Positions 6,605-50,803 of a stretch of 51,340 nt of DNA are shown piece after piece. Source of the stretch: Promethearchaeota archaeon (GTDB lineage Archaea > Asgardarchaeota > Lokiarchaeia > Sigyniarchaeales > SOKP01). A program made the position numbers and the translations under genes. Below the pieces are notes generated by a model. It searched no databases. It was not told the origin of the DNA and saw only the letters and a program-made list of their open reading frames with translations. How positions within the stretch are numbered: the stretch's first letter is position 1; every line of letters starts with the position of its first letter. The DNA lies in assembly GCA_016840545.1 (NCBI GenBank), contig JAEOSD010000002.1, positions 1 through 51,340 on the forward strand, written 5' to 3'.

Positions 6605-6722
6605 AATGGCTAAGGTTTATAAAATTTAAAAAAGATTAAATAGGTTTATTTTTATTTAGATGTTATTGAGTTAGAATATCGACAAAATTATCTAATGTAT
6701 TGGGTTTTTAAAAAGAAAAAAT

Positions 6723-7247
6723 ATGTACGATGCAATTTTTAAAGTGGTTATTTTTGGAGACGCAGGTTGTGGTAAAACTACTTTATTAAAGAGGTATATG
6801 ACCGGCTTATTTATCCCAGACACGCGAATGACTATCGGAGTTGACTTTGAGACTAAAAATCTTGCGATTGATAGTGTGCAAGTTAAATTAATGGTGTGGG
6901 ATTTTGCTGGTGAAGAAAGATTTCGGTTTATCTTTCCTAAATATATCCGTGGTGCTATGGGTGGGATTCTGTTGTATGATATCACCAATTACTCCTCTCT
7001 TTCTCATGTTTATGATTGGTTATCGATTATGAATGGTGCCCATGAGCAATTTCCAATTATTCTAAGCGGTGGTAAGGCAGATCTAGAAGTATCTCGAGAA
7101 GTAACCTTTGATGAGGGTTTAAAAATCGCTAGATCTATGGATTTAGATGATTTCATCGAGTGTTCCAGTAAAACTGGTGAAAATATAGGGACATTATTTG
7201 AAAACTTAACAAAAAAGATGTTAAATATGGCATTTACCGAACAATAA
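6723..7247 (+). CDS. Ras-superfamily small GTPase, Rab-like (paralogue 1)
   Basis: G1 GDAGCGKT, switch I TIGVDF, G3 WDFAGEERF, G4 GGKADL, G5 ECSSKTGENI. No C-terminal Cys prenylation motif. Confidence 0.85.
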   Translation: MYDAIFKVVIFGDAGCGKTTLLKRYMTGLFIPDTRMTIGVDFETKNLAIDSVQVKLMVWDFAGEERFRFIFPKYIRGAMGGILLYDITNYSSLSHVYDWLSIMNGAHEQFPIILSGGKADLEVSREVTFDEGLKIARSMDLDDFIECSSKTGENIGTLFENLTKKMLNMAFTEQ

Positions 7248-7326
7248 ACAACCCCAGCCTCTTAATGTTTTTCTTTTCAATTCAAAATTTTAAAAAAAAG
7301 AATTTTACTAATTTTATATATTCATC

Positions 7327-8310
7327 TTATTCCGATTTTTCTGTTTCTTCAGCTTTCTTTTCTTTAGATATTTTACCTTTTATTTCGTTGATTTCTTCTT
7401 TAATTGTTTTAATAGTGATTCCTTTAAGTTTAGCAAATCTATAAATGAAAATAACACTAGAAATTAGAATTCCAGCAAGAAAAAATATTTGAATGGTCCA
7501 GAATAACGGTTTTATTGATGTATAGAATATTAAATCGAAGGCATAGGATAATGACGCAATAGTAGTAATCCAAATCATAGAGATTATTAAAACTATTCTT
7601 TCATAAAGTTTTGGCTCTCCTTTATCAAGGATAAATATTTTTAACCAGAAAATAACACAAATAAATGCTACTGGTGTAAAAATTAGTGAACCTATGGCAA
7701 GGGGTATGAGTAAATATACTGCAAATCGACTTCTCCAAATTTCAAGTACTTCTCCTAAGGTCATTTGGTCTTGAATTTGAACCTTAGCATACTTCCCTCT
7801 CCACGTAAAATATTTTTTCTTAATCCCTCGTCCTATTTTTTTGGCGCCACCTTTAATCCGCTTTATTAATCCTTGGGCGACAGCTTCTTGAAATTCCTCT
7901 CTAATTAAAGGAATTATATATAATGAAGCCATTAAAGAAATGGTCCCATAAAGGAATAAAAGAAGGTCAAACCAATATCGTAGCCCTGTCAAAGGAGTTG
8001 TAGGTGGTAGATTTGAGACGATACTATAAATTGCATAACCAGTTAAAATTGCTGGAACTATCACTTGAATAATTACAAGAGCTTGAACATGTTTTTTTTC
8101 AAATTTTTCGGTAAATCGATTTAAAATCCATAAAATACCATTTGCAACAGTCAATATCAAACCAAAACCAGAAAGGAGTTTCATAGTCCAAAAGAAAATT
8201 AAGAAAGTGAAATCTAACGGTACAAACTCAAAGATTAATTCCAGTATCATAAAAATAGTAGTCCCAACTAAGCCTATTATATAAAATATGTCAAATTTTT
8301 TAAGATTCAT
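7327..8310 (-). CDS. polytopic membrane protein, unknown function
   Basis: Multiple long hydrophobic segments, a basic central loop (KRIKGGAKKIGRGIKKKYF) and a charged C-terminal tail. Confidence 0.5.
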   Translation of the reverse strand: MNLKKFDIFYIIGLVGTTIFMILELIFEFVPLDFTFLIFFWTMKLLSGFGLILTVANGILWILNRFTEKFEKKHVQALVIIQVIVPAILTGYAIYSIVSNLPPTTPLTGLRYWFDLLLFLYGTISLMASLYIIPLIREEFQEAVAQGLIKRIKGGAKKIGRGIKKKYFTWRGKYAKVQIQDQMTLGEVLEIWRSRFAVYLLIPLAIGSLIFTPVAFICVIFWLKIFILDKGEPKLYERIVLIISMIWITTIASLSYAFDLIFYTSIKPLFWTIQIFFLAGILISSVIFIYRFAKLKGITIKTIKEEINEIKGKISKEKKAEETEKSE

Positions 8311-8491
8311 AATTACAATAGATTACAGCAAATATTAATAATGTTTGGGTTTTAAGGATTTTAAACTGTATTATTTCCAAGCAATTTTCATAACAACAAT
8401 AGACTCTTGTTATTACGCATGAAATACGTAACGCTAATTAACCGTAAAGTTAATATATTTCACAAATCTAACTACAAAAAGGACTTTTATA

Positions 8492-34048: not shown

Positions 34049-36409
34049 CTAGATTGTAGCATGTTCTGTTCTTCTGATAATCTCATCTTGCAAATCTGCC
34101 CCTAAATTAATGAAATAATCACTATATCCTGCAACTCGTACGATTAAATCTCCATATTTTTCTGGATGTTTCTGTGCTGCACGTAAGGTATCTGCTGATA
34201 CAACATTAAATTGGATATGATGCCCATTCATTTCGAAATATGCTCTAATTAAGTGAGCTAATTGATTAATTCTATTCTGGTCAGAAAAGAAATGCGGACT
34301 ATATTTTTGGTTCAATAAAGATCCTCCTGTTCTTAAATGATCAATTTTACTAGCAGATTTAATTACTGCAGTTGGACCATTGGTGTCCATACCCTGAACT
34401 GGGGAAATACCCTCTGATAAAGGTGTATAAGCCCTACGACCATCTGGTGTGGCACCTGTCACTTGACCAAAATAAATATGAACCGTTGTAGGAAGAAGAT
34501 TGATACGATGCACTCCTCCTCTAGTATTAGGACGATTATTAATAGCATCATACACAATGTTAAAAACTTGAGTAGTTAATGAATCAGCATAATCATTATC
34601 ATTTCCATATTTAGGAGTTTTATAGATTAGCATCTGACGGATAAAGTCATATCCCTCAAAATTATTATCTAAGCTTTTTAGTAATTGTTCCATGGATATA
34701 TTTTTTGTATCAAATACATTATACTTAAAAGAAGCCAAACAATCCGTAATACTACCCATTCCTACAACTTGAATGTATGATGTGTTATATCTAGCTCCAC
34801 CATTATTGTAATCCTTCCCATTCTTAATGCAATCATCGATCAATATCGAGAGGAAAGGTGCCGGACTTTGTGCCCATATTCGTTCAATTATCTGATTTCC
34901 CTTAATCTTAATATCTACAAAATGCTTAATTTGTGCATTATAAGCTTTGAAGAGATCCTCAAAAGTTTCAAACGATATTGGATCACCGGTTTTCAATCCA
35001 ATCTGTTTCTTAGTTATCGGATCAAAACCATTATGAAGCGTTATTTCAAGTATTTTTACTAAGTTGAAATATCCTGTTAGAATGTATGCTTCTTTCCCAA
35101 AAGCACCAGATTCAACACAGCCACTTGCTCCACCATTTCGAGCATCTATCAGGGATTTACCCTGTTTAGTTAATTCTTGAATTATTGCATCTGCATTGAA
35201 AACTGAAGGCTGCCCAAAACCAGTTTTAATAATTTCAAGCGCTCTATTTAAAAATTCATCTGGAGTTTTATTAGTTATCTGAACATTACTACTTGGTTGA
35301 ACTATCCTCATTTCTTCAATTATATCTAAAAGTATATAAGACATTTCATTAACTCCATCAGAACCATCTTCCCTAAGACCACCGATGTTAATATTGCAAA
35401 AATCAGTATATGTATTGCTTTCTTCTGCTGTTACTCCAACTTTGGGTGGAGCAGGTTGATTATTGAATTTCACCCAAAAAGCTTGAAGTAATTCATAAAT
35501 ATCTTCCTTTGTCAATACACCATTAGCTACATCTTTTTTGTAGAACGGAAATAGGTGCTGATCCAAGCGTCCGGGATTGAAAGAATCCCACGTATTATAT
35601 TCTGTTATTACACCTAAATGAATAAACCAATAATGTTGGAGTGCCTCCCAAAATGTTCTTGGAGCATATGCTGGGACATAGGAACATATATCTGCTATCT
35701 TCTGTAACTCTTTTTTTCTAATTTCATTTGACTCAATTGTAGCCCGTCGTCTGGCTTCTTGCGCATGGCGTTGTGCAAAACTGATTATTGCATCCGCAGC
35801 GATATCCATTGCTTTTAGCTGCTCTCTTTTATTAAAAGCATCTGGATCATTGAAAAAATCTAATTTTTCTATATTATCTTTTATTTCTTGTTTAAAATCA
35901 ACAAATCCCTTTTTCCATATATTTTTTCCTCCAACTGTATGTCCTGGTGCTCTCTGTTCCATAAACTCCGTGAAAATGCCAGCTTCATAGGAATCAATCC
36001 ATGCATTATCAACTTGAGAGAAGATTTTATCACGAATAGATCTTCCTTTCCAAAAGGGAATGATTGTTTCTTCTGTTTTTTGCCTTGTATCTTCAGAAAC
36101 TTTGAATGAAATTTTATCTCGAGTATTTAGAATGTCTAAATCTTGTAAGCTATGACAACATACTTCTGGATAAGTAGGCGTTGCTTTTGGTTCTGGACCG
36201 CGTTCACCAACAATTAATTCACCCTCATTGATACAGATTTTTTTGTTTTCCATTAAATACTTGAATGCCATTGCTCTTGCAACTGGAGCTGAAAATTTAT
36301 GAGCTGCACCAGTTTTATAAAATTCGGTGATTAATAGAGCGCGTTCCAATGAAATAGAAGGGATTGTATTTCGGCTTTGAGCCCGTAATTTTTTAATTCG
36401 TTCATTCAT
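34049..36409 (-). CDS. glycyl radical enzyme, PFL2/dehydratase-lyase class (GCVE type)
   Basis: C-terminal glycyl-radical motif LIVRVAGYSDYF. Thiyl loop GGASGCVESG has a single Cys plus Glu, unlike the CC of true PFL. The 786-aa size is typical. Confidence 0.9.
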   Translation of the reverse strand: MNERIKKLRAQSRNTIPSISLERALLITEFYKTGAAHKFSAPVARAMAFKYLMENKKICINEGELIVGERGPEPKATPTYPEVCCHSLQDLDILNTRDKISFKVSEDTRQKTEETIIPFWKGRSIRDKIFSQVDNAWIDSYEAGIFTEFMEQRAPGHTVGGKNIWKKGFVDFKQEIKDNIEKLDFFNDPDAFNKREQLKAMDIAADAIISFAQRHAQEARRRATIESNEIRKKELQKIADICSYVPAYAPRTFWEALQHYWFIHLGVITEYNTWDSFNPGRLDQHLFPFYKKDVANGVLTKEDIYELLQAFWVKFNNQPAPPKVGVTAEESNTYTDFCNINIGGLREDGSDGVNEMSYILLDIIEEMRIVQPSSNVQITNKTPDEFLNRALEIIKTGFGQPSVFNADAIIQELTKQGKSLIDARNGGASGCVESGAFGKEAYILTGYFNLVKILEITLHNGFDPITKKQIGLKTGDPISFETFEDLFKAYNAQIKHFVDIKIKGNQIIERIWAQSPAPFLSILIDDCIKNGKDYNNGGARYNTSYIQVVGMGSITDCLASFKYNVFDTKNISMEQLLKSLDNNFEGYDFIRQMLIYKTPKYGNDNDYADSLTTQVFNIVYDAINNRPNTRGGVHRINLLPTTVHIYFGQVTGATPDGRRAYTPLSEGISPVQGMDTNGPTAVIKSASKIDHLRTGGSLLNQKYSPHFFSDQNRINQLAHLIRAYFEMNGHHIQFNVVSADTLRAAQKHPEKYGDLIVRVAGYSDYFINLGADLQDEIIRRTEHATI

Positions 36410-38386: not shown

Positions 38387-38806
38387 ATGAAAGATTTAAA
38401 GACCAGTCTACATCATGCTCATCTTTTTGCATCAAACGTGGATGAAAGTATACGTTTTTATGTTGAAATGTTTGGAGCAGAGATTCTTTTTGATTTAGAG
38501 ATGGCAGGAGCTCGAAATGTTATGATAACAATTGGAACGTCAAAACTTAATTTCTATGATCAGCCGCCAAAAGATACAGGAAGAGGAGCTATTCATCATT
38601 TAGGCATAGAAACTGATGACCTTGAAAGTCTTGTTGCGCATATGAAAAGTAAAGGATTTAAGTTTAGAAACCAAATTAAAAGTTTTGGACCATTGAAGTA
38701 TGTTATGATTGCAGGTCCAGATAATGTGCTTTTTGAGCTTTTTGAAGTTGTAAAAGAAAAAGTTACTCAGGAGCAATACAATTTAATCTCAACCTTAGTT
38801 ATCTAA
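38387..38806 (+). CDS. VOC (glyoxalase/bleomycin-resistance/dioxygenase) family protein
   Basis: LHHAHLFASNVDESIRFYVEMFGAEI and IHHLGIETDDLESLVAHMKSKGFKF. The ORF track starts at a TTG at 38339; the ATG at 38387 gives the family-typical length. Confidence 0.8.
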   Translation: MKDLKTSLHHAHLFASNVDESIRFYVEMFGAEILFDLEMAGARNVMITIGTSKLNFYDQPPKDTGRGAIHHLGIETDDLESLVAHMKSKGFKFRNQIKSFGPLKYVMIAGPDNVLFELFEVVKEKVTQEQYNLISTLVI

Positions 38807-38808
38807 AG
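38727..38808 (+). repeat. direct repeat copy 1 (3-prime end of the VOC gene), partner at 46761..46842
   Basis: 82 bp align with 46761..46842 without gaps and with about 8 mismatches, counted by eye. Confidence 0.8.
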
Positions 38809-38856
38809 GTTGTTAATCATTGAGCTACGAAAAATTATTAAATGTATAATTATCAA

Positions 38857-38979
38857 AAAAATAAAGTCTTAAAAAGATAAACATCCTATTTATCATTAAT
38901 CATTATACAACATTGTATATCGATCCTAAAAGAATTCCAAGATTTCAATCTTTTCTATACAAAAGCATGATTTGATAAA
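38857..38979 (+). promoter_or_regulatory. upstream region of TIR-receptor gene A, duplicated upstream of gene B
   Basis: About 120 bp are highly similar to 40973..41096. Both contain A/T-rich TATA-like tracts (TTTATC, TTATACAA) and two ATCCTA direct repeats about 36 nt apart. Confidence 0.4.
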
Positions 38980-40929
38980 ATGAAATCTAAAGTTAAAGCT
39001 AGGGATATAGAATTTAATTCAGTTTCATTTAATTTAAATAAAAATTTTACTTTAAAGAAATTTTCATTACTTTTTTTTATCTTAATATTATTTAACTTAA
39101 TTTTGATAACTAGTCTCAATCAGTTGTTATATAACAAATATATTGTATCTCAAGAGGTATCTATTATTAAAGTTTCAGATAATTATCTTTCAGAATCGAT
39201 TATTATTGACGATACTGGAGCAGGTAATTACACTTGGGATCAAGCAACAGCTCAAGAGTGGTGCTCTGGTTCTGGCACTTGGAATGATCCATATATTATT
39301 GAATTCTTAGAAATTGATGGTCAGAATTTTGCAGGCTGTTTAATAATCAGAAATTCTAGTGTGTTTTTCATTATAAGGGATAGTATTTTTTATAATTCTG
39401 GTGGAGGAGTTACTGATGCTGGGCTCAAATTAGAACATGTTTCAAATGCTACATTAATTAATATCGATTGCTCAAATAATAAAGGCTATGGGGTTTATTT
39501 GTATAATTGTAAGAACATAACCATATTAGAAAGTGATATGAGCCATAATAAGTTAGGGGGCATTTTTCTAAATTCGAGTAGTTTTAATTTAATTACAAAT
39601 AATACTGATACAATAAACTATAACTATTGGGGTATTTATCTCTTATCGAGTCATAATAACACCATCAGTGGAAACTTCATAGGATATAATCAAGTAGGTT
39701 TACTTCTTAAGCAATCTAACAATAATTCTATAATTGAAAATATCTTCATGGAAAATGATGAAGCTTATATTCTTGAAGAAGATAGTTCTGGAAATAAGTT
39801 CCGAAGAAATACAATAACACTGAAACCCAACTTATTATTTGTAATCATTATAATTATCGTTATTATAGCTGGTATATCTGCTGCAAGTATCCTAACTATC
39901 TGGAAGAGAGTAATTATTCCGAAAAAAAGAGGAGAAGTAAAAGTACATGGAAAAATAAAAATTAAAGTTGAAAAAAATCTTCATGATAAGTTATCCTTTA
40001 TTGACTACTTGATAAGGGAAAAAAGTGTAAAAGAAGCTCTCAATAATCTGGAAGAGATTAAGGATTTATGCAACATATATGGTTTATTTGAGATATTAAA
40101 TGAGTGTGATGAAAAAATTGCTCATTGTAATTATCTGTATTTAGAGATGATTAGCATAATTAAGAGAATTGTGATAAATTTAGCTACTAAATTTGCGAGA
40201 TTAGAAATAATCGATATTAGTGAAAAAACTGGAATAAATGATGAAGATTTCATTATTGAAGTTATAGAAGAAATGATTCAAAATAATGAGGTATATGCTG
40301 AATACTTTTCAAACTATAAAACTATTAATTTTGACCAACAATCAAATGTTGAACAGATTGAAAAGCTCATAAAAACTTATGGAGAATGGGAGAAGAAAAA
40401 CCTTGATCGGGATGATTCGGCCCTTTTAATAGAAGAGATTCTGCCTCGGGAATTAAGATCAAAACCTATAATTTCTAAGTCTAAACCTGATGAATTCAAA
40501 GAGCTTAATATCTTTTTAAGTTATTCCACTATAGATACAGATTATTTTCAAATATCAAGAGTTGCAAAGAGTCTAGAAGAATACCCAGAGATTAACAAAG
40601 TAAAGTATTGGGAGGCAGATAGTACACAAAATATTGTTGAGTATATGGATAAAATGCTTGAAAAATGCGATGTGTTTGTATTATTTTGTAGTGAAAACTC
40701 TATGAAATCAATTTCTGTAAAAGATGAGTGGCAAGCGGCATTCCAGAGAAGGAAAAAGGGATTGGTTTCAATTATTCCAGTTTATGAACAAACTAGACAC
40801 ATTCCCGTTATATTAGGTCACTTTTTAAAGGTTAAATATGATAAAACAGATTTTAATAGTTTTACCAGGGAACTATATCAAGAGATTATGCGCTCAAAAG
40901 GCAGGAGACTACCACAAATAATAGCCTAA
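38980..40929 (+). CDS. membrane receptor-like protein: signal anchor, extracellular parallel beta-helix (PbH1/NosD-like), TM helix, cytoplasmic helical/winged-helix module, C-terminal TIR-like domain
   Basis: TM1 is FSLLFFILILFNLILITSL. Beta-helix repeats include NNKGYGVYLYNCKNITILESDMSHNKLGGIFL and NNTISGNFIGYNQVGLLLKQSNNNSIIENIF. TM2 is LLFVIIIIIVIIAGISAASILTIW, followed by KRVIIPKKRGE. The C-terminus LNIFLSYSTIDTDYF ... CDVFVLFCSENSMKSISVKDEWQAAF ... IIPVYE matches the TIR_2 pattern. Confidence 0.75.
   Translation: MKSKVKARDIEFNSVSFNLNKNFTLKKFSLLFFILILFNLILITSLNQLLYNKYIVSQEVSIIKVSDNYLSESIIIDDTGAGNYTWDQATAQEWCSGSGTWNDPYIIEFLEIDGQNFAGCLIIRNSSVFFIIRDSIFYNSGGGVTDAGLKLEHVSNATLINIDCSNNKGYGVYLYNCKNITILESDMSHNKLGGIFLNSSSFNLITNNTDTINYNYWGIYLLSSHNNTISGNFIGYNQVGLLLKQSNNNSIIENIFMENDEAYILEEDSSGNKFRRNTITLKPNLLFVIIIIIVIIAGISAASILTIWKRVIIPKKRGEVKVHGKIKIKVEKNLHDKLSFIDYLIREKSVKEALNNLEEIKDLCNIYGLFEILNECDEKIAHCNYLYLEMISIIKRIVINLATKFARLEIIDISEKTGINDEDFIIEVIEEMIQNNEVYAEYFSNYKTINFDQQSNVEQIEKLIKTYGEWEKKNLDRDDSALLIEEILPRELRSKPIISKSKPDEFKELNIFLSYSTIDTDYFQISRVAKSLEEYPEINKVKYWEADSTQNIVEYMDKMLEKCDVFVLFCSENSMKSISVKDEWQAAFQRRKKGLVSIIPVYEQTRHIPVILGHFLKVKYDKTDFNSFTRELYQEIMRSKGRRLPQIIA
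39202..40929 (+). repeat. paralogous module shared with 45009..46730 (beta-helix, TM, cytoplasmic domain, TIR)
   Basis: The 5-prime part has stretches of more than 70 nt identical to gene B, for example AGCTCAAGAGTGGTGCTCTGGTTCTGGCACTTGGAATGATCCATATATTATTGAATTCTTAGAAATTGATGGTC. The cytoplasmic part is more diverged. Confidence 0.85.
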
Positions 40930-40972
40930 CAATAAAGTTTCTATTCTATTTTCTTAAGTTACTATATTTCAC

Positions 40973-41096
40973 AAAAATAAAGCCTTAAAAAGATAAAGAT
41001 CCTATTTATCATTAATCGTTATACAATATTGTAGGATCGATCCTAAAAGAATTCCAAAAGTTCAATTTTTTCTATACAAAAGCATAATTTGATAAA
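40973..41096 (+). promoter_or_regulatory. upstream region of TIR-receptor gene B (copy of 38857..38979) with a 12-bp perfect palindrome
   Basis: AGGATCGATCCT at 41033..41044 is a perfect palindrome; copy 1 keeps only ATCGAT. The rest is collinear with copy 1. Confidence 0.4.
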
Positions 41097-44000
41097 ATGA
41101 AATCCAAAGTTAATGCTCATCTATCTAGAAAGATAAAGTGTAATTCATTTTCAATGAATTTTAAAAAGAAAATAATGTTAAAACGAGTTTCAATATTATT
41201 TTTCATCTTAATATTTTTCTCCTCAATTTTCTTCTCAAATTTGAACACACGCATAAATGAACCCCATAAAAAGGATCCAATCTCTTATGATAAAGATCCT
41301 CAATTAAGCAACCAAGGAGATGATATATTCAAACTAGTCTTTGGTACTCCTTATGGTCCAAATGCTCTTGATCCTCAAAACGCTTGGGATCAAGATTCAT
41401 ATAATGTGATAAATCAAGTGTGTGAGGGTTTATTTTCACATAATTTATCTGATCCAAATTTATCAATTATACCTCGTCTTGCAACAGCAAAGGGTACTTG
41501 GATGATCAATTCCACAGATACATGGTATACTGTTTCCCTTAGACCTAATGTATTCTTCCATGATGGAACTAAATTTAATGCAAGTGCGGTAAAATTTACT
41601 TTTGATCGATTAAGTTATTTTATGAATGTTAGTGGTACTCTTCCTGGGGAAGTAGGTCTCTCTATAATTTCTGTAGTATATGAGTATTATGATTTCGATC
41701 TCGGAAAAAATTACCCTATTATTAATAATACTGTTATTATAGATGAATATACAATTAGGTTCGAGTTAAATAAACCTTATGGACCATTTGAAGCATTACT
41801 ATGCTTTACTGGCTCATACATTTTATCTCCTACATCTACACCTCAATATGATCGTATAAATACAACTGTAGGAGATTTGGTCGGTACAGGTCCATTTGTT
41901 TATGACCATTTTATACCTGGTGATGAAGTAAAATTTCACGCTTTTGAGAATTATTGGGCAGGCAAGGCAAATATTACTTTTCTTAAATTTTCCATAATCC
42001 CAAGTGCAATAGGTAGAAATAACGCACTGTTATCAGGAGAAGTTGACTTAATAATCGATCCACTCGCCTCAATGTATGATAATTTTGATGCTGACCCTGA
42101 TATTACGTTAAATGATGCTGGACAGACTACATTAGTTCGATATCTTGGTATGAATAATAAAAGGATCAATGTAACTTGGCGAAAGGCAATTTCGAATGCC
42201 ATCAACTACTCCTATATTATTAATGTATTACTTGAAGGAAATGCAATAAGATTAAAATCTCCTCTGCCGGAAAATATGATATTTGCTAACTGGTCGTTTA
42301 ATGTCGCATTATATAACGTCACAAAAGCTAGAGAAATCATGCAGAGTATGGGTTTTGGCGTTGGATTCACAACAGAAGCAGAATGGTCTACGGCAACATT
42401 TGCTACTTTTAACTATAGCTATAATATTGGTAATAGTTTCCGAGAAGATATCTTAACTTTATTACAAGTTAATCTTGATAAAATTGGAATTGAAGTAACA
42501 GATGCTGGTACGAGCTGGATGGAATATTTTTATAAAATTGTTGAAATCCCTCCCTACACAAGAGATATGTTGGAACTCTACTTCTTAAATTGGATACCTG
42601 ATTATTTTGACCCAAGTAATTATATTAATGATTTATTCACTAATAGATCTGTTGAAGTTAATGGTGTCCAATATAATGGTTATACAGAAGCAATTGCAGC
42701 AGGTAGAGATCCATTTGATCTTTGGGATAATGTACAACTTTTAATGGATGCCGCTTTATTCGAAACTGATCAAATAGCAAGAAAAGCAATGTACGATAGA
42801 ATCCAACAACTCTTAGTGGAGGAGGATATGCCATGGGCATTTTGTTGTCTTCCGGATAATTATGACGCCTATCAAAGCCACATTCTTGGGTTTCAATCGA
42901 ATTCTATGGGAATCTTAAGTTTTTACGGCGTTAAACAAAATAGTACCATAGCTCCGCAAATTATTTCTATAGATGGTATTCAAGAGTGGCAATATTTTAA
43001 AGATGCAGGAAAATGCACTGGACAGGGTACAAGTTCGGATCCTTATGTAATAGAAGATTTAGCAATTGACGGTCGAAACAAATCGGTTAGTTGTATTCAG
43101 GTAGAAAATTCTGATGTGTATTTTACAATTGAAAATTGCACATTATATAATTCAATAGGTGCAGGAATTAAACTTATAAATGCTAGTAATGGACAAATAA
43201 TTGGTAATAATTGTTCAAATAATACTTTTGGGATATATTTAGATAATATTAACAACACTAATAACTTTTCTGCCAATGTTATTAATAACAATCTTCAGTA
43301 TGGGGTTATTTTAAACAATGTTAATAACACTCGAATTTTTAATAATAATTTTACTATAAATAACGTTAATGCCTATGATAATGGAACTAATAATAATTGG
43401 GATAATGGAAGTATAGGGAATTATTGGGATGATTATGGCGGAGTGGATGCAAATGATGATGGAATAGGGGATACTCCGTATTTAATACCTGGTACCGCAG
43501 GAAGCCAAGATAATTTTCCAATATGGGATGATGGGATTGATATTATAGCTGCGAAGATCGATAATATATTCTTAAATGGTGTGAATAAAACAATTGATAA
43601 ATCAATTTCTCTTTATTTGAACGAACTACTGGAGATTATAATTACTTATAGGGAAAATTTAACTTCAAACTTCATTACCTCAGCGACCGTAAGTATAACA
43701 GGGCCGACGATTACAGCAAATTTCACTGAAAATATCATTGCAGAGCATTATATTTTCATTTTGAATACTTCGGATTTGATAATTGGAATTAATAATTTGG
43801 AAATTAAAGCCTATAAGGTTAATTATCAGCAAGTATCGACCAATATAACTGTGACAGTATCTGTACCAGTCAGTGACTTATCTATTAATATAGTTTCTCC
43901 ATCAGAAGGGCAACTGTTTGGTGCTACGGCTCCTTCATATAATGTTGAAATTTCTGGTACTAATTTAGATACGATGTGGTACACACTTGACGGAGGGTTC

Positions 44001-46730
44001 ACAAATATAACATTTATAGCTAATGGTACCATTGATCAGACTGAATGGAATACTCGAGCAAATGGAACTGTTATAATTGCTTTCTATGCAAATGATACCT
44101 TAGAGAATATGGTTTCTAGCTCTGTATTAGTTAGAAAAGATTCTATCGCGCCAAATATTACCATTATTTCTCCTTTATATAATGAGCTTTTTGGAGCCTT
44201 GGCGCCGACTTATACTGTGGAAATTACTGATAGCAACGGAATAGATACAATGTGGTATACACTTGATGGGGGGTTCACCAATATCACCTTTATAGCTAAT
44301 GGTTCCATAGACCAGATAGAATGGGTTGGTCAAGCAAATGGAACTGTTACAATTGCTTTCTATGCAAATGATACCTTAGGAAATCTAGCCTTTAATTCAA
44401 TTATAGTCAGGAAAGATATTTTATCAGGTCCAACCATTTTAATAAACTCACCAACTGAAAACAGTTTTTTTGGTTATAACTCTCCTAATTTTAATGTAGA
44501 AATAACTAATATTAATGGTATAGATACAATGTGGTATACGCTTGATGAGGGACTTACCAATATTACATTTATAGCTAACGGTACCATAGATCAGACTGAA
44601 TGGGATGCTCAGGGAAACGGAACAATCACAATTAGATTTTACTCAAATAATACTTTAGGAATTTTGAGCTTTATGGATATAACGGTTGGGAAAGATACCG
44701 AAATACCAGTGATAACAATTCATCACCCAATAGCAAACACAACATTTCTACTAAGTAGCCCTGAATTCAATCTTTCTATTACTGAAGGAAATTTGGATTT
44801 CACATGCTATTCCCTATCTAACGATACATATGTAACAGGCAATTTTACATTTTCCGGTTTAACAGGAAAAATAGATCAAGAGCTCTGGGATAGTTTTATT
44901 AGTGGTCCGGTAGAAGTAATTTTTTATGCTATTGACAAAGCAGGAAATATTGGCTTTCAAAATGTGTCTATTATAAAACAATCAGAATATTACATTTTAG
45001 AAACTATAATTATTGACGATACTGGAGCAGGTAATTACACTTGGGATCAAGCAAAAGCTCAAGAGTGGTGCTCTGGTTCTGGCACTTGGAATGATCCATA
45101 TATTATTGAATTCTTAGAAATTGATGGTCTAAATAATGGAAGTAATTTAATAATTAGAAATTCTAATGCGTATTTCATTATTAGGGATAGTAGTTTTTAT
45201 AATTCTGGTGGAGGAGTTACTGATGCTGGGCTCAAATTAGAACATGTTTCAAATGCTACATTAATTAATCTTGATTGCTCGAATAATAATGGGCATGGAA
45301 TTTATTTATACAATTGTTATAATATCACCATATTAGAAAGCAATATGAATCATAATAAGTTAGCGGGTATTTTTCTAAATGCGAGTAGTTACATTTTCAT
45401 TTTAAACAACACAGAAACAATAAGTTATAATTATTGGGGTATTTATCTCTTTTCGAGTCATAATAACACCATCAGTGGAAACTTCATAGGATATAATCAA
45501 GTAGGATTAGTTCTTAAGCAATCTAACAATAATTCTATAATTGAAAATATCTTCATGGAAAATGATGAAGCTTATGTTGAAGAAGATAGTTATGGAAATA
45601 CATTTCAAGGAAATACGGTAGTACAGAAACCTGATAATCTATTTGTAATTATTATAATTGTTATCAGTTTAGTTAGTATTTCTGGTTTTAGTTTTATAGT
45701 TGTTCGGAAGAGAATAATTATTCCAAAAAAAGGGAGAAAAATAAAAGTATATGACAAAAAGAAAATTAAAGTCGAAGAAAAAATTCATAATAGGTTGTTA
45801 GCTGTTGATCGTTTGATAGAGTTAAAAAATGTAAAAGAAGCACTTAAGGATCTTGAAGAAATTAAAGATTTATGCAAAGTATATGGTCTATTTGAAAAAT
45901 CAAATGAATGTGATGAAAAAATTAATCAATGTAATAGTGAATATCTAGAAATGATTAATATAGTCAAAAGAGTTGTTTTAAATTTAGCTACAAAATTTGC
46001 GAGATTAGAAATAATCGATATTAGTGAAAAAATTGGAATAAGTGATATAAATTTCATTATTGAAGTCTTGCAAGAAATGTTTCGGAATAATGAGATTAAG
46101 GGTGAATATTTTTCAAAATCGAAAACAATTGCTTTTGACAGACAATCAAATATCGAACAACTCGAGCAGTTCATAAAAATCTATAGAGAATGGGAGATGT
46201 TAAATCTTGACAGGGATGATTCGGAGCTGCTATTAGAAGAAATTCGCTCAGAGGAAATAAAACCGAAAGCTATAGTTTCTAAATTATTGCCTGAGAAATT
46301 CAAAGAACTTAATGTTTTCTTAAGTTATTTTACTCTGGATGCTGATCACTTCCAAATATTAAGAGTTGCAAAGAGTTTAGAAGAATACCCAGAGATTGAT
46401 AAAGTAATGTATTGGGAATCGGATAGATCAAAAGAAATTGCAGATTATGCAGAATTTATGGATGAAACACTTAAAAAATATGACGTGTTTGTGTTATTTT
46501 GTAGTACAAATTCTATGAAATCTGCTTCTGTAAAAGATGAGTGGCAAGCAGCATTTGAGAAAAGGAAAAAGGGTTTAATTAAAATTATTCCTGTTTATGA
46601 AAAACTGGATGACATTCCAGTTATATTAGGACACTTTTTGAATGTTAAATATGATCAAAAACAATTTGAAAATTTTATCAAGAATCTTTATCAAGAGATC
46701 ATGCGCTCAAAAGGTAGCAGAATTTCTTAG
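41097..46730 (+). CDS. giant membrane receptor-like protein: signal anchor, family-5 solute-binding domain, beta-helix 1, Ig-like repeats, beta-helix 2, TM helix, cytoplasmic helical/winged-helix module, TIR-like domain
   Basis: The SBP_bac_5-like region includes ALDPQNAWDQDSYNVINQVCEGLF...IPRLA...WYTVSLRPNVFFHDGTKFNASAVKFTFDRL. The NosD-like beta-helix includes GNYWDDYGGVDANDDGIGDTPYLIP. There are four repeats of about 95 aa (MWYTLDGGFTNITFIANGTIDQ). Beta-helix 2 is nearly identical to that of gene A. The TM helix is LFVIIIIVISLVSISGFSFIVV, followed by RKRIIIPKKGRK. The TIR-like C-terminus is LNVFLSYFTLDADHF...VFVLFCSTNSMKSASVKDEWQAAF...IIPVYE. Confidence 0.75.
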   Translation: MKSKVNAHLSRKIKCNSFSMNFKKKIMLKRVSILFFILIFFSSIFFSNLNTRINEPHKKDPISYDKDPQLSNQGDDIFKLVFGTPYGPNALDPQNAWDQDSYNVINQVCEGLFSHNLSDPNLSIIPRLATAKGTWMINSTDTWYTVSLRPNVFFHDGTKFNASAVKFTFDRLSYFMNVSGTLPGEVGLSIISVVYEYYDFDLGKNYPIINNTVIIDEYTIRFELNKPYGPFEALLCFTGSYILSPTSTPQYDRINTTVGDLVGTGPFVYDHFIPGDEVKFHAFENYWAGKANITFLKFSIIPSAIGRNNALLSGEVDLIIDPLASMYDNFDADPDITLNDAGQTTLVRYLGMNNKRINVTWRKAISNAINYSYIINVLLEGNAIRLKSPLPENMIFANWSFNVALYNVTKAREIMQSMGFGVGFTTEAEWSTATFATFNYSYNIGNSFREDILTLLQVNLDKIGIEVTDAGTSWMEYFYKIVEIPPYTRDMLELYFLNWIPDYFDPSNYINDLFTNRSVEVNGVQYNGYTEAIAAGRDPFDLWDNVQLLMDAALFETDQIARKAMYDRIQQLLVEEDMPWAFCCLPDNYDAYQSHILGFQSNSMGILSFYGVKQNSTIAPQIISIDGIQEWQYFKDAGKCTGQGTSSDPYVIEDLAIDGRNKSVSCIQVENSDVYFTIENCTLYNSIGAGIKLINASNGQIIGNNCSNNTFGIYLDNINNTNNFSANVINNNLQYGVILNNVNNTRIFNNNFTINNVNAYDNGTNNNWDNGSIGNYWDDYGGVDANDDGIGDTPYLIPGTAGSQDNFPIWDDGIDIIAAKIDNIFLNGVNKTIDKSISLYLNELLEIIITYRENLTSNFITSATVSITGPTITANFTENIIAEHYIFILNTSDLIIGINNLEIKAYKVNYQQVSTNITVTVSVPVSDLSINIVSPSEGQLFGATAPSYNVEISGTNLDTMWYTLDGGFTNITFIANGTIDQTEWNTRANGTVIIAFYANDTLENMVSSSVLVRKDSIAPNITIISPLYNELFGALAPTYTVEITDSNGIDTMWYTLDGGFTNITFIANGSIDQIEWVGQANGTVTIAFYANDTLGNLAFNSIIVRKDILSGPTILINSPTENSFFGYNSPNFNVEITNINGIDTMWYTLDEGLTNITFIANGTIDQTEWDAQGNGTITIRFYSNNTLGILSFMDITVGKDTEIPVITIHHPIANTTFLLSSPEFNLSITEGNLDFTCYSLSNDTYVTGNFTFSGLTGKIDQELWDSFISGPVEVIFYAIDKAGNIGFQNVSIIKQSEYYILETIIIDDTGAGNYTWDQAKAQEWCSGSGTWNDPYIIEFLEIDGLNNGSNLIIRNSNAYFIIRDSSFYNSGGGVTDAGLKLEHVSNATLINLDCSNNNGHGIYLYNCYNITILESNMNHNKLAGIFLNASSYIFILNNTETISYNYWGIYLFSSHNNTISGNFIGYNQVGLVLKQSNNNSIIENIFMENDEAYVEEDSYGNTFQGNTVVQKPDNLFVIIIIVISLVSISGFSFIVVRKRIIIPKKGRKIKVYDKKKIKVEEKIHNRLLAVDRLIELKNVKEALKDLEEIKDLCKVYGLFEKSNECDEKINQCNSEYLEMINIVKRVVLNLATKFARLEIIDISEKIGISDINFIIEVLQEMFRNNEIKGEYFSKSKTIAFDRQSNIEQLEQFIKIYREWEMLNLDRDDSELLLEEIRSEEIKPKAIVSKLLPEKFKELNVFLSYFTLDADHFQILRVAKSLEEYPEIDKVMYWESDRSKEIADYAEFMDETLKKYDVFVLFCSTNSMKSASVKDEWQAAFEKRKKGLIKIIPVYEKLDDIPVILGHFLNVKYDQKQFENFIKNLYQEIMRSKGSRIS
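43864..44980 (+). repeat. four tandem in-frame repeats of about 280 bp encoding Ig-like (chitobiase C-terminal-like) domains inside gene B
   Basis: Units start near 43864, 44148, 44427 and 44703. Units 1-3 share GATAC(G/A)ATGTGGTA(C/T)AC.CTTGA.G..GG..T.AC.AATAT.AC.TTTATAGCTAA(T/C)GGT. Unit 4 is diverged. Confidence 0.85.
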
Positions 46731-46760: not shown

Positions 46761-46842
46761 TGCTTTTTGAGCTTTTTGAAGTTATAAAAGAAAAAGTTAC
46801 TCAAGGGTAATATAATTTAATCTCATCTTTAGTCATCTAAAG
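46761..46842 (+). pseudogene. relic copy of the 3-prime end of the VOC gene (direct repeat copy 2)
   Basis: It translates as LLFELFEVIKEKVTQG-stop, versus VLFELFEVVKEKVTQEQYNLISTLVI-stop in the intact gene. There is no upstream coding continuation. Confidence 0.7.
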
Positions 46843-46896
46843 AATTTTAGGTATAAATTAAAAAAAAAAGGGATTTCTTAAATATAGGTTGTTATT

Positions 46897-47958
46897 CTAT
46901 ACAGAAAATCTTTGGTTAATATTTGTCTGAAATTGAATATGAGGTCTTCGATGAGCCTGAGCTTGGTATCCGCCTCTTTTTGAGACTAAATAAAATTGTG
47001 CCATTGTACTATTATGTACAAGAGTTATACCGCGCCATTTTTTATCATTCGAGTTAAACTCAACTACATTTCCAAGTCCTATTCCTTCTCGAGTAGAGAA
47101 GTTAAAGGTTAACTTCCGTAAAATGCTAATAATTTCATCATGATATTCTTTTGAATTTTCCTTAATTGGTTTATCAATAATAATTGGTTTATCTTTAAAT
47201 CTTAATGCTTCAATTGCAAAAGCTTTAAAGATATCATTACTCATATAGTTCCATGCATAAGAATTAGCATAAAATTCAATTCCAATAAACTCTCCATTTA
47301 TAAATACCGCTATTCCGCATTGGTTCTCGACATTCTTAAAGTTTTTAATGATTTTTTCAGTTTGTTTTTCGGATACCTTTGTCATTTCAAGATAACTTTG
47401 AGTTGGCGCAACGTTCATGGCATATTTCATTTCGGCTCTATGAGATTGGATTTCCTCCCAAACTGCTGATTGACCACTTGCTGAAATTGCCTCATACGCA
47501 ACATTTGGGTGTATTCTCATTTTTGATGATTTAAAGCCTCGTCCTTTATTATAAGTCCACCGTGATTGTTCTACGCATTTTGCAGGTATAGTGTATTTTT
47601 GTTTGCCTTTTCCGGGGTTTTCACTAAATACACTTTTCTTTCCTCCAACTGGGAGTAAAATTGGTTCCCAAATTGTACGGTCCTGCTTTCCACCATGAAC
47701 AGTCATTCCAAATGGAATTAATATTTGTTTATCGCTTTTATTTATAACCTCTAATTGACTAACAGCTTCAGTTTCAATTATTTCTATTAATCCGGATTCT
47801 TCTGCTTCTTTAATACTAATAAAATCTATAAATTTATCATCTTGAATAATAATGGGTATAACGGTCATATTTTCATAAGCTTGAGGTGTACCTAATTTAA
47901 GAAAACTTAATGGATTTTTAAAAATAGACTCAACAATTTCAATACTTTCACTTTTCAA
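46897..47958 (-). CDS. conserved hypothetical protein, tentatively ARPP-1/DUF6569-like
   Basis: YENMTVIPI near the N-terminus, HGGKQDRTI and IPAKCVEQSRWTY resemble, from memory, the PL..., GxxQNR and CVExGRW motifs of DUF6569/ARPP-1. Not verified. Confidence 0.35.
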   Translation of the reverse strand: MKSESIEIVESIFKNPLSFLKLGTPQAYENMTVIPIIIQDDKFIDFISIKEAEESGLIEIIETEAVSQLEVINKSDKQILIPFGMTVHGGKQDRTIWEPILLPVGGKKSVFSENPGKGKQKYTIPAKCVEQSRWTYNKGRGFKSSKMRIHPNVAYEAISASGQSAVWEEIQSHRAEMKYAMNVAPTQSYLEMTKVSEKQTEKIIKNFKNVENQCGIAVFINGEFIGIEFYANSYAWNYMSNDIFKAFAIEALRFKDKPIIIDKPIKENSKEYHDEIISILRKLTFNFSTREGIGLGNVVEFNSNDKKWRGITLVHNSTMAQFYLVSKRGGYQAQAHRRPHIQFQTNINQRFSV

Positions 47959-47960
47959 AT

Positions 47961-48380
47961 CTATTCATCCTCCAATTTATTATTTTTAATATTTTTCTTT
48001 TCTCCTTGGTTAGGCATTTCCTCCTCATAGAGAGGATCAACAAATTGATTAACAATCTTTTTCCCGTTTTTTGTAAGTTCAACCCCATAAGAGACTTTAA
48101 GCTTTCCTTTTTTGCTCAAACCATTGATTCTTGTACCCCTTTCCACTTGGAATTTAGTTTCTGATAGTTCCTCCTTATGCGTTTTAACCAAACCTCCTTT
48201 TTTAAGGGCATTCAGATGGTAATTTAGGTTTTGCTTTTCTATTCCTATATTGTCCGCAATATCTATTGGTCTTTGAGTTTTTTCAGAAAGCTCTTTCATG
48301 ATATCAACTCTTACAGGGCTCCGAAATACAAGCCCAACCTTATCGAAAATAGGTTTTTTCTTTTCTTTTTTTTTAGCCAT
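47961..48380 (-). CDS. winged helix-turn-helix (ArsR-like) transcriptional regulator
   Basis: VRVDIMKELSEKTQRPIDIADNIGIEKQNLNYHLNALKKGGLVK. It ends 2 nt before the downstream 353-aa gene starts, so the two are probably co-transcribed. Confidence 0.7.
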   Translation of the reverse strand: MAKKKEKKKPIFDKVGLVFRSPVRVDIMKELSEKTQRPIDIADNIGIEKQNLNYHLNALKKGGLVKTHKEELSETKFQVERGTRINGLSKKGKLKVSYGVELTKNGKKIVNQFVDPLYEEEMPNQGEKKNIKNNKLEDE

Positions 48381-48701: not shown

Positions 48702-49547
48702 TTAACCTGTTGGAGAGAACACACCTGCAAAAACAAGCCACGCTAGGAATGTTTTTGAAACTAGACTTAATAGCTGATATACTCTTTCGCCATATAAATA
48801 GTCTTTCCATTTACCGACTCCTTTATATTGAAGAATCATGTTAATTGCGAACGTATTAAAGAAGAACAATTCAATTCCATAAATCATATAAACAAACCAA
48901 GGAATTCCGGGTCCAACAGAAACATCGGTATTAATAAAGTATGCGGTGATTACGATCCATGGTACTGCTCCAGCAATTACACCCAAATAGTAGGGTGTCC
49001 AATTAATCTTCTCTTTTAATTTCCTTGTGTATACGTTATAATTCTCCATAACTAATCCGAACATATTCATTAGAAAATTAGAAACAAATATCATAAAAAG
49101 AGACCAAAAATCAAGGACACCGAAAAACAATGCAATCAAAAAAATCATAACAGAGCTAGAAAAAGCATATTCAAACCAACGTATTTTATTAACCCCTCTT
49201 TTCAGATCTCTCACATACTTTTTGTTTAGCGGGTAAGCGATCAAGAAATGTGCTAACGCAGATAATAATAGAAAGGTTCCAACAAGCGCACCTAACGCAG
49301 TGAAGGTGAAAAATACTTCTATAACTGGCCCAAAAGTAGGTGGAGGTCCAGGATCAAAATTTTGATAAAAGGTATAGATATCTGCCGAAAAGCCTAATTG
49401 GGGTAAGAATCCGAATATTACCATCAGTAATCCCTGAATTAAATGCAAAAAAAACATATTCCGATTGAATTTCCTTAGATAATCGAAAGAAATATCAGAT
49501 TTTGGGATTAACCACTCATCTTTTAAATCATTATCAGTAGAGTTCAT
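48702..49547 (-). CDS. heliorhodopsin
   Basis: 7-TM protein collinear with my recollection of heliorhodopsin 48C12: FNRNMFFLHLIQ, RWFEYAFSSSVMI (counterion Glu126), AGAVPWI, and LQYKGVGKWKDYLYGERVYQLLSLVSKTFLAW (Schiff-base Lys265, codon 48755..48753). Confidence 0.85.
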   Translation of the reverse strand: MNSTDNDLKDEWLIPKSDISFDYLRKFNRNMFFLHLIQGLLMVIFGFLPQLGFSADIYTFYQNFDPGPPPTFGPVIEVFFTFTALGALVGTFLLLSALAHFLIAYPLNKKYVRDLKRGVNKIRWFEYAFSSSVMIFLIALFFGVLDFWSLFMIFVSNFLMNMFGLVMENYNVYTRKLKEKINWTPYYLGVIAGAVPWIVITAYFINTDVSVGPGIPWFVYMIYGIELFFFNTFAINMILQYKGVGKWKDYLYGERVYQLLSLVSKTFLAWLVFAGVFSPTG

Positions 49548-50341: not shown

Positions 50342-50803
50342 ATCTCAGAATTAAACGAAGATAAACTAAATATAATATGTAAGGATTCATTAATACCGGG
50401 AAAGGCATTTATTCCTCGTAAATATACTTTAACTCATTCTGATTCAACAGGAGATTTATTTCTAACGATCGATTGTGAATATGATGATGAACAGATATCT
50501 GGTTTATATACTCGTTTTATGAGAGATGAGGTCTTAGCGGAGTGGATTGAGAATGAAGGACGATATGAACTCCATATTTACGTTCATGTTAGTGGAGGGT
50601 TTGTTTTTGGATGGGCAAAATTAAGATACAAGATTTTCAAACATCATATGCCTTTAGTTCTAAAAGCAATAAGGAAAGGAGATAGAGAATTATTTGAGTT
50701 ATTTCCAAGTTTAGATCAATCTCAAATCTATATTCATTTCTTATCAAACAGAAATAAATATAATAAAATAGAAGAATTTGGAATTTTAAAAGATTATAAA
50801 TAA
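50342..50803 (+). CDS. Staygreen (SGR, Mg-dechelatase family) homologue; 5-prime end unresolved
   Basis: PRKYTLTHSDSTGDLFLTI, RDEVLAEW, LHIYVHVSGG, LRYKIFKHHMPLVLKAIRKGDRELF, and YIHFLSNRNKYNKIEEFG follow the SGR consensus. The frame is open from 50342, but the first in-frame ATG is at 50519. Confidence 0.8.
   Translation: MSELNEDKLNIICKDSLIPGKAFIPRKYTLTHSDSTGDLFLTIDCEYDDEQISGLYTRFMRDEVLAEWIENEGRYELHIYVHVSGGFVFGWAKLRYKIFKHHMPLVLKAIRKGDRELFELFPSLDQSQIYIHFLSNRNKYNKIEEFGILKDYK

Follow-up and report, generated by a model that had tools for sequence, protein, structure and literature searches.

A family-5 solute-binding domain on a TIR-tailed membrane protein of a Promethearchaeota archaeon

The binding domain of gene B

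The 51,340-bp window analysed here is an entire contig (C101) of a Promethearchaeota metagenome-assembled genome (MAG) of 2.88 Mb, which comprises 220 contigs, is approximately 92% complete, and has a G+C content of approximately 30%. The gene under study, gene B (41097..46730; coordinates are on the forward strand unless marked with a minus sign), was delineated from the open reading frame (ORF) list, its translation, Pfam matches, and the architecture table, and it encodes an 1877-amino-acid (aa) membrane protein. In this protein, which has the shape of a Toll-like receptor, a module for nutrient capture seems to have taken on the sensing role. From the N- to the C-terminus, it consists of a tail and a hydrophobic segment, a family-5 solute-binding domain (SBP5), a first beta-helix, immunoglobulin (Ig)-like repeats, a second beta-helix, a transmembrane (TM) helix, a helical/winged-helix module, and a TIR domain. 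We put the chances at about even that gene B is a ligand-capturing ectodomain on a TIR receptor and no longer serves a transporter.

The SBP5 domain, a cluster C, OppA/DppA-like module, occupies aa 75–613 (41319..42935), as determined with Pfam, PDB alignments, AlphaFold2, and Foldseek. An earlier, sequence-only reading of this DNA had placed it at residues ~75–610 (41320-42935); the peptides quoted there are all found in the translation, and Pfam and the PDB alignments agree with that placement. The SBP_bac_5 profile (PF00496) matched aa 126–517 with an E-value of 4.8e-65 (220.5 bits vs. a cut-off of 32.4) and was covered from position 4 to position 364 of its 368 positions. When phmmer was run against PDB sequences, the whole of aa ~80–612 could be aligned to DppA/HbpA of H. 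pylori (E 1.3e-31), as well as to Haemophilus GbpA/HbpA and to Yersinia and E. coli DppA, while NikA, AppA, the agrocinopine-binding AccA, and PrgZ obtained lower scores. The AlphaFold2 model of aa 55–860, built from a 45-sequence alignment, reached a mean predicted local distance difference test (pLDDT) score of 85.4 and a predicted template-modelling score of 0.77, with the SBP5 blocks mostly above 90. In the Foldseek comparison of the SBP5 model with the PDB, the top matches were all cluster-C binding proteins (E 1e-40), with target-normalised TM-scores of 0.75–0.91 across DppA, GsiB, OppA, and NikA; the highest value, 0.91, corresponded to the YliB/GsiB entries 1uqw and 5u4o. The model was closer to open DppA (1dpe, 0.82) than to closed DppA (1dpp, 0.75). 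By sequence and by model, gene B carries a complete, confidently folded two-lobe cluster-C domain.

Regarding the ligand pocket, the motif W499-I-P-D502 (42591..42602; HMMER alignment to 1dpp_A) is equivalent to W405...D408 of DppA (D436 in precursor numbering), where D408 forms a salt bridge with the alpha-amino group of the peptide (PMC12136057). An Asp equivalent to D502 was present in 45 of 50 aligned Asgard SBP5 domains and in 9 of the 12 members of the TIR-linked clade described below. At the position of DppA R355 (R383 in the precursor), the dipeptide-carboxylate clamp (PMC12136057), gene B has A436 (42402..42404; alignment to 1dpp_A and 3m8u, codon checked). As D502 and W499 are conserved and the Arg is replaced by A436, the amine anchor is kept and the dipeptide-specific carboxylate clamp is not. 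An amine anchor without a carboxylate clamp resembles, we presume, the oligopeptide binders of the OppA type. The NCBIfam models for NikA, DppA, GsiB, SapA, and Opp4A also matched gene B, all of them far under their equivalog cut-offs (the best scores being 98.9 bits vs. 393 for NikA and 96.1 vs. 1005 for DppA), and a substrate class assignment by this route was dropped on account of these low scores.

Transporter context and origin of the fused domain

Genome-wide profile scans with BPD_transp_1 and ABC_tran gave no match on contig C101, that is, in the whole window, confirming the earlier observation that no ATP-binding cassette (ABC) permease or ATPase gene accompanies gene B there. In the genome, the OppB/C-type permease family was confined to contigs C106, C135, and C159, and none of the 32 ABC ATPase matches was located on C101. 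The single Opp transporter of the genome is encoded on contig C106 by an operon with the organization SBP5 (601 aa)-291-151-OppB-OppC-OppD-OppF. The genome has four SBP5 domains to this one OppBC pair, the probable orphan binding proteins being those of C25 and C181. Likewise, no ABC genes were present within 10 kb at four other SBP5...TIR loci (P0026, in two records, P0024, P0021, and P0076) or within 8 kb at the SBP5...TIR locus of the genome Promethearchaeota YT5_023. With C101 and five related loci devoid of a permease or ATPase gene, an ordinary anchored binding protein whose transporter lies outside the window was rejected as the main interpretation. In this respect, the earlier view of gene B as something other than an ordinary operon binding protein held. 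Gene B is not a single case; it belongs to the large Asgard family described below.

The nearest free homologues of the domain were found in transporter operons. Two of them (582 and 602 aa), 51–52% identical to the gene B domain, are situated in operons of the type SBP5-x-x-OppB-OppC-OppD-OppF. As a separate observation, the Asgard Opp operons contain two conserved genes (~291–293 and 151–159 aa, no Pfam match) between SBP5 and OppB (L006:9824-11181, L007:9909-11266, and L017:5845-7187). In a FastTree phylogeny of 261 SBP5 domains, 10 TIR-linked domains and two partial proteins formed one clade with a support of 99, located in a 60-member group that also contains 28 free operonic proteins. 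Other TIR-linked SBP5 domains were placed elsewhere in the tree, which requires TIR to have been acquired or lost five times or more, and the SBP5–TIR combination has therefore been shuffled repeatedly. Judging from these sequence relationships, the best explanation would be that the SBP5 domain of gene B derives from a copy of a component of the oligopeptide ABC system of its own lineage.

The comparison of fused and free domains also points to a change in constraint. The TIR clade and the free clade have in common 105 positions with a conservation of 90% or more, and the fused domain is therefore not decaying. At approximately 16 further positions, conservation is 0.7–1.0 in the sister free clade and in 38 more distant free proteins and falls to 0–0.5 in proteins with tandem SBP5 domains, in those linked to TIR, and in other long ones. 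Control positions keep values of 0.78–0.98 there. These free-only positions correspond to D90, A100, A257, E273, G275, V276, D294, D315, Y529, A532, R537, N545, R568, W580, Y584, and P611. A constraint repeatedly lost on fusion would be expected if free proteins must dock onto a permease and fused ones need not.

Cytoplasmic module and TIR domain

The C-terminal part of gene B was modelled from aa 1545 to 1877 with AlphaFold2 (34 sequences, pLDDT 80.3), which revealed a helical/winged-helix part connected by a disordered linker to a TIR domain with a flavodoxin-like fold. The first segment, composed of three long helices and a PCI-like winged helix (45729..46211), was modelled with a pLDDT of ~85–93 and showed a weak Foldseek match to the COP9 signalosome subunit CSN3. 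It is followed by a TIR_2 domain (PF13676) at aa 1740–1854 (46305..46727; E 2.9e-11), identified with Pfam and Foldseek. Searching the PDB by sequence with the cytoplasmic region returned nothing useful; the fold search gave the matches, namely the TIR domains of SPARTA TIR-APAZ, SARM1, and MyD88, with E-values from 6e-5 to 1e-3. The alignments of homologues placed a catalytic-type Glu, E1815 (46539-46541), after beta-C within the motif S-V-K-D-E-W. This residue and the adjacent Trp did not vary in either of two alignments, one with 40 homologues and one with 34, and 17–19 further TIR positions were invariant across divergent homologues. In enzymatic TIR domains, the Glu that follows beta-C is needed for NADase activity (PMC7075850). 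Based on the fold and on the conserved Glu, the TIR domain of gene B is predicted to be an enzymatic-type TIR_2.

Ectodomain, stalk, and membrane topology

The N-terminus of gene B (41097..41258) is composed of a basic 30-aa tail and a hydrophobic segment at aa 31–49, identified by a hydrophobicity scan, with 26 of 50 residues identical to the N-terminus of the upstream paralogue, gene A. According to its sequence, the segment at aa 31–49 may be cleaved off as a signal peptide, which would make gene B a type-I protein, or may stay in place as a signal anchor, in which case the protein would span the membrane twice. Immediately after the SBP5 domain, beta-helix 1 (NosD/CASH-type, 42972..43532) is recognised by the NCBIfam NosD model at aa 685–795, by AlphaFold2 strands at aa ~650–770, and by internal similarity to beta-helix 2. 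It is followed by an Ig-like/OmpL47-type region (43533..44966) of about four ~92-aa repeats visible in the translation, with a weak OmpL47 match; direct DNA repeats (family D1) occur inside this region at 43929-44697 with a spacing of 276–279 nt. The membrane-proximal beta-helix 2 (44967..45632; Pfam NosD/Beta_helix at aa 1347–1512) is common to gene A, with which it shares 71% aa identity. Finally, the TM helix at aa 1513–1537 (45633..45707) was assigned from the hydrophobicity scan and the asymmetry of N-X-S/T sequons.

Between the two hydrophobic segments, 57 sequons were counted vs. 24.9 ± 4.5 expected from composition, and the C-terminal 333-aa part contains 0. This bias fits a glycosylated extracellular ectodomain and a cytoplasmic tail, and together with Pfam and the hydrophobicity scan it bears out the earlier proposal that the SBP5 domain is covalently joined to the TIR domain through beta-helix and Ig-like modules and one TM helix.

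The A-B locus and its relatives

Gene A (38980..40929; Pfam and BLASTP) encodes a 649-aa paralogue with a signal, a beta-helix, a TM helix, the helical/winged-helix module, and a TIR domain. It corresponds to gene B without aa ~50–1287, that is, without SBP5, beta-helix 1, and the Ig modules, and is 71% identical (BLASTP) to gene B aa 1288–1876, which comprise beta-helix 2, the TM helix, the helical/winged-helix module, and the TIR domain. Overall, the two genes share DNA segments that are 73–93% identical. The promoter/5' region of gene A (38835..39000) is duplicated at 40951-41117 before gene B with 84–93% nucleotide identity (families D7 and D8), the promoter and 5' end of gene B being 93% identical to those of gene A (family D7). 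Downstream of gene B, at 46761..46849, lies a relic of the 3' end of a VOC (glyoxalase) gene, 89 nt in length and 88% identical to 38727-38815 (direct-repeat family D6). This repeat brackets the A-B pair, and its position suggests that the pair was inserted or duplicated as a cassette.

The order of gene A followed by gene B recurs in two other genomes, those of the closest metagenomic relative and of YT5_023. In the former, an A-like gene is followed by P0021, 72% identical in the SBP5 domain, and then by a third SBP5 gene. A frameshift in the TIR-coding part of its gene A homologue (L004:7756-9608) leaves two ORFs of 542 and 75 aa, and this homologue may be either a pseudogene or the product of a sequencing error. 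In YT5_023, a 639-aa A-like gene precedes a B-like gene that encodes 3619 aa and contains two SBP5 domains. In a close relative, a syntenic contig bears an A-like gene (92% identical) alone, beside genes for ARPP-1, a winged helix-turn-helix (wHTH) protein, and heliorhodopsin; it ends just upstream of this A-like gene. Because of the recurrence of the A-B order, the relative with gene A alone, and the lack of a full-length gene B orthologue in 24 same-genus genomes, the sequences describe the A-B locus as a fast-evolving paralogue array.

On C101, genes encoding ARPP-1 (PF20208) and an ArsR-type wHTH protein (46897-48380, minus strand) are convergent to gene B. The same pair directly follows the A-like gene of the close relative (L009:2753-4218) and was absent from the other four loci. 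The ARPP-1 family was named for its association with ADP-ribose-processing conflict systems. A role for ARPP-1 as the reader of a TIR signal was considered and set aside, as the gene does not recur at the other loci and nothing specific to such a role emerged from the literature. Upstream of other SBP5–TIR loci, signalling genes were found that are not conserved across loci, namely one encoding a RelA_SpoT and TPR protein (L003:2512-5079) and another encoding a Ras/Arf-like small GTPase (L008:981-2024).

Related proteins in Asgard archaea

The search for SBP5 proteins was limited to long proteins, with taxa assigned by source names. In Asgard archaea (Promethearchaeota, Loki-, Hod-, Hermod-, and Thorarchaeota), it identified at least 108 long proteins that carry from one to four SBP5 domains in tandem. 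Among the modules combined with SBP5 in these proteins are beta-helix, PKD, CARDB, Peripla_BP_6, zinc ribbons, Ras/Arf GTPase, WD40, and TIR_2. The combination of SBP5 with TIR_2 was found at least 16 times (14 clusters among the long proteins and two among shorter proteins). Among the other architectures, P0002-P0009 and others are giants of 2100–2800 aa with three or four tandem SBP5 domains, some of them with a single C-terminal TM helix and no other recognised domain. SBP5 and a TM helix are also joined to a Ras/Arf/Roc GTPase (P0078), to WD40 propellers (P0023/P0099), or to zinc-ribbon domains (P0027/P0028/P0032).

When the cytoplasmic 333 aa were used as the query in an exhaustive HMMER search, 957 clusters (at 50% identity) were recovered, 528 of them at E ≤ 1e-10, and the match was nearly always C-terminal. 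All 40 long tail-bearing members carried TIR_2, and their ectodomains comprised NosD/beta-helix (32), leucine-rich repeats (LRR; 2), Peripla_BP_6 (2), and SBP5 (1), the remaining ones being PKD, FG-GAP, or propellers. The LRR–TM–TIR architecture thus accounts for two of the 40. Separately, a 721-aa protein with LRR and a weak PCI match is encoded at L005:13417-15582 (minus strand), convergent to the SBP5–TM–TIR gene P0076.

The genome of gene B itself contains eight TIR_2 matches. A tandem pair on contig C31 (L015:74-4219 and 4221-8483) encodes proteins of 1381 and 1420 aa composed of a beta-helix, Peripla_BP_6, Ig-like repeats, a TM helix, and TIR_2, with a C-terminal extension of ~250 aa in addition; Peripla_BP_6 is a binding fold of the LIVBP type. 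On contig C49 (L016:6059-7690, minus strand), a 543-aa protein combines a WD40/PQQ-like beta-propeller ectodomain with one TM helix and TIR_2. The Peripla_BP_6–TIR proteins of C31 and the SBP5–TIR protein of gene B place two unrelated binding-protein folds on one chassis in one genome. Judging from domain composition, SBP5 is one of many interchangeable ectodomain modules on a TIR chassis.

Proposed function and alternative explanations

In the interpretation that we favour, the SBP5 domain of gene B would capture a ligand, probably a peptide or another amine-bearing oligomer, which may form part of something larger and multivalent, for instance a polymer, the surface of a virus, or a cell of a partner. 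Binding would shift the oligomeric state of the receptor, either by homo-clustering or by pairing with the gene A product through the shared beta-helix, TM, and helical modules. Clustering would then juxtapose the TIR domains and lead to the cleavage of nicotinamide adenine dinucleotide (NAD+) or to ADP-ribose-derived signals. A Venus-flytrap-style coupling, as envisaged by the sequence-only reading, is unlikely; lobe closure is hardly transmitted by allostery, since ~900 residues of rigid modules (beta-helix, Ig-like repeats, beta-helix) lie between the SBP5 domain and the C-terminal TM helix. Known enzymatic TIR domains are switched on by self-association, and ligand-driven clustering or B-A pairing would for this reason be the more economical form of coupling. 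Ligand-gated signalling by gene B is therefore best described as plausible. A broader proposal, which we advance tentatively and hold to be less probable than not by a clear measure, is that Asgard archaea possess a large outside-in system, hitherto undescribed and of Toll/IL-1 receptor design, with swappable ectodomains on a constant chassis of TM helix, PCI-like module, and enzymatic TIR, in which SBP5 and LIVBP folds were independently co-opted as ligand sensors and in which an extracellular peptide, or a ligand from a partner or a virus, clusters the products of genes B and A and triggers NAD+ chemistry in the cytoplasm.

Several observations weigh against a ligand-gated receptor. The SBP5 domain lies at the far N-terminal end, from where a conformational change could not plausibly reach the TM helix directly, and clustering has to be assumed. 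Gene B is without the carboxylate-clamping Arg of DppA, which leaves the ligand class uncertain. No known TIR-signal effector was seen adjoining gene B, and PADLOC gave no match there either. The gene has no full-length orthologue in the 24 congeneric genomes and is thus dispensable and fast-evolving. Many Asgard SBP5–beta-helix proteins have a C-terminal anchor alone and no cytoplasmic domain, which suits capture or adhesion equally. Finally, if the N-terminal segment is uncleaved, it would tether the SBP5 domain near the membrane, where it would be able to dock onto the Opp permease in trans.

Foremost among the alternatives, although unlikely, is a structural or adhesive role, in which SBP5–beta-helix–Ig glycoproteins would coat cells that lack an S-layer or attach them to polymers or syntrophic partners, the binding fold serving as a sticky or simply architectural element and the TIR domain acting as a non-enzymatic dock to cytoplasmic partners. 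The long Asgard proteins with SBP5 described above, 108 in number and with up to four copies of the domain, many of them with a C-terminal anchor alone, are consistent with such a coat, as are the heavy sequon load of the ectodomain (57 vs. ~25 expected) and the beta-helix and Ig repeats, which are typical of adhesins. Moreover, the cultured Asgard archaeon P. syntrophicum, in which an S-layer protein was not detected, has an SBP5 protein as its principal N-glycoprotein (PMC11284389). However, the invariant TIR Glu and the 17–19 other invariant positions argue for an enzymatic function or a specific interaction, the ligand-anchoring Asp/Trp and the 105 core positions are retained, and a variable ectodomain, a constant tail, and paired paralogues form the pattern of a receptor.

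Nutrient capture ranks after the coat and is unlikely as well. Here, the SBP5 domain, as an additional and still functional binding subunit, would hand peptides in trans to the Opp system of C106, and the stalk and TIR domain would anchor it or couple uptake to regulation. The ~50% identity to operonic Opp binding proteins and the retained Asp/Trp favour this role, and with four SBP5 domains for one OppBC pair, orphans are likely to share one translocator. The conserved N-terminal tail and hydrophobic segment could keep the domain at the membrane; the objection that the SBP5 domain stands tens of nm from it, once considered as a case against transport, is weakened by this possible second anchor. 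SBP5 proteins with dual roles in transport and signalling are also known, such as DppA with Tap in E. coli chemotaxis (PMC8050422). In contrast, none of the fused classes has kept the ~16 positions that free proteins conserve, no transporter is near any of the six loci examined, the SBP5 domain is always followed by a rigid beta-helix, and the same chassis bears non-SBP ectodomains (LRR, propellers, or a beta-helix alone) that would be unable to feed a transporter.

Quite improbable, in our estimation, is an immune (abortive-infection) sensor, whose ectodomain would detect a viral or foreign surface or peptide and whose TIR domain would deplete NAD+ or make a Thoeris-like signal. The closest folds to the TIR domain are those of the defence NADases SPARTA TIR-APAZ and SARM1, and the fast turnover, the tandem paralogues, and the absence of an orthologue among the 24 congeners would suit an immune gene. 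So would the LRR–TIR members of the family and the ARPP-1 gene that adjoins both gene B and the A-like gene of the close relative. Nevertheless, the PADLOC defence models returned 0 families for genes A and B, no effector or partner gene conserved across the six loci was found, the neighbours are ordinary metabolic genes, and a peptide-transporter domain would be odd as a sensor of viruses. An assembly or gene-calling artefact, namely a chimera of a free SBP5 gene and a copy of gene A, is scarcely credible: in this 220-contig MAG, the A/B DNA segments of 73–93% identity could mislead an assembler, but the order SBP5–beta-helix-...-TM–TIR recurs across independent assemblies of NCBI, JGI, and ENA, in at least 14 protein clusters, YT5_023 has the 3619-aa version, and the gene B frame is open for 5.6 kb without a stop.

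Comparison with known systems

When compared to the Opp/Dpp binding proteins (E. coli DppA, OppA, and GsiB/YliB; H. pylori DppA/HbpA), the gene B domain is alike in its full-length sequence, its fold, and its Trp...Asp motif, and its nearest free relatives are the Opp-operon binding proteins of Asgard archaea. Unlike them, it is part of an 1877-aa receptor-like protein, has no permease or ATPase gene nearby, lacks the clamp Arg, and has lost the ~16 positions. With Venus-flytrap receptors, gene B shares a bilobal transporter-type fold that is covalently linked, across the membrane, to a signalling domain in the cytoplasm. Binding-protein folds serve as ectodomains in glutamate, GABA-B, taste, and natriuretic-peptide receptors and, in bacteria, in BvgS-type kinases; the latter use SBP_bac_3, while class C G-protein-coupled receptors, ionotropic glutamate receptors, and natriuretic-peptide receptors use LIVBP-type domains. 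In these receptors, membrane-adjacent class I/II folds signal through the rearrangement of dimers, whereas gene B has a cluster C fold distal on a long rigid stalk and a TIR domain as its output. To our knowledge, a cluster-C (peptide-type) binding domain has not been known as a covalent receptor module.

Family-5 proteins are also used for sensing, besides or instead of transport, as separate partners of receptors, and the cases of DppA–Tap, AibA–TlpB, and the chitin-binding CBP–ChiS represent such signalling in trans (PMC8050422). Those are separate soluble proteins, mostly encoded beside transporters, whereas gene B is one polypeptide. Toll-like and interleukin-1 (IL-1) receptors resemble gene B in having an ectodomain, a single C-terminal TM helix, a cytoplasmic TIR domain, and Ig-like modules. 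The combination of a long ligand-binding chain and a short accessory-like TIR chain in IL-1R/IL-1RAcP recalls genes B and A; as for Toll-like receptors, the family includes LRR–TIR members, and the TIR fold of gene B matches MyD88. In contrast to these receptors, gene B has a TIR_2 domain with the NADase-type Glu and a helical/winged-helix module between the TM helix and the TIR domain, and we know of no adaptor homologues for receptors of its type. The resemblance is architectural and is taken here as an analogy, not as a homology.

Regarding TIR defence proteins, gene B shares with Thoeris ThsB, SPARTA TIR-APAZ, and Rst_2TM_1TM_TIR a TIR_2 domain in which the catalytic-type Glu is conserved, and SPARTA TIR domains gave its best structural matches; it differs from them in the lack of a PADLOC match and of a partner effector gene and in its large extracellular sensor in place of a cytoplasmic one. 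A survey of Asgard defence mentions TIR within named systems only (PMC11291487). In the literature searched, no description of an SBP5–TIR protein or of an Asgard TIR-tailed receptor family was found beyond in-trans SBP5 signalling, the P. syntrophicum glycoprotein, and TIR surveys. TIR-tailed single-pass receptors underlie animal innate immunity, and gene B unites a binding-fold ectodomain with a TIR tail in the archaeal lineage closest to eukaryotes. If the SBP5 domain gates TIR chemistry, it would be the first archaeal case of signalling from an extracellular ligand to a TIR domain and would offer a tractable model of how transporter parts become receptors, with a soluble ectodomain, a small catalytic tail, and D502 and E1815 as defined residues. 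If gene B is instead a capture or coat protein, it would bear on how Asgard cells without an S-layer build and use their surface.

Other genes of the contig

The same contig carries genes unrelated to gene B, encoding a heliorhodopsin (48702-49547, minus strand), a Staygreen-family protein (50519-50803), and a glycyl-radical (PFL-like) enzyme (34049-36409, minus strand).

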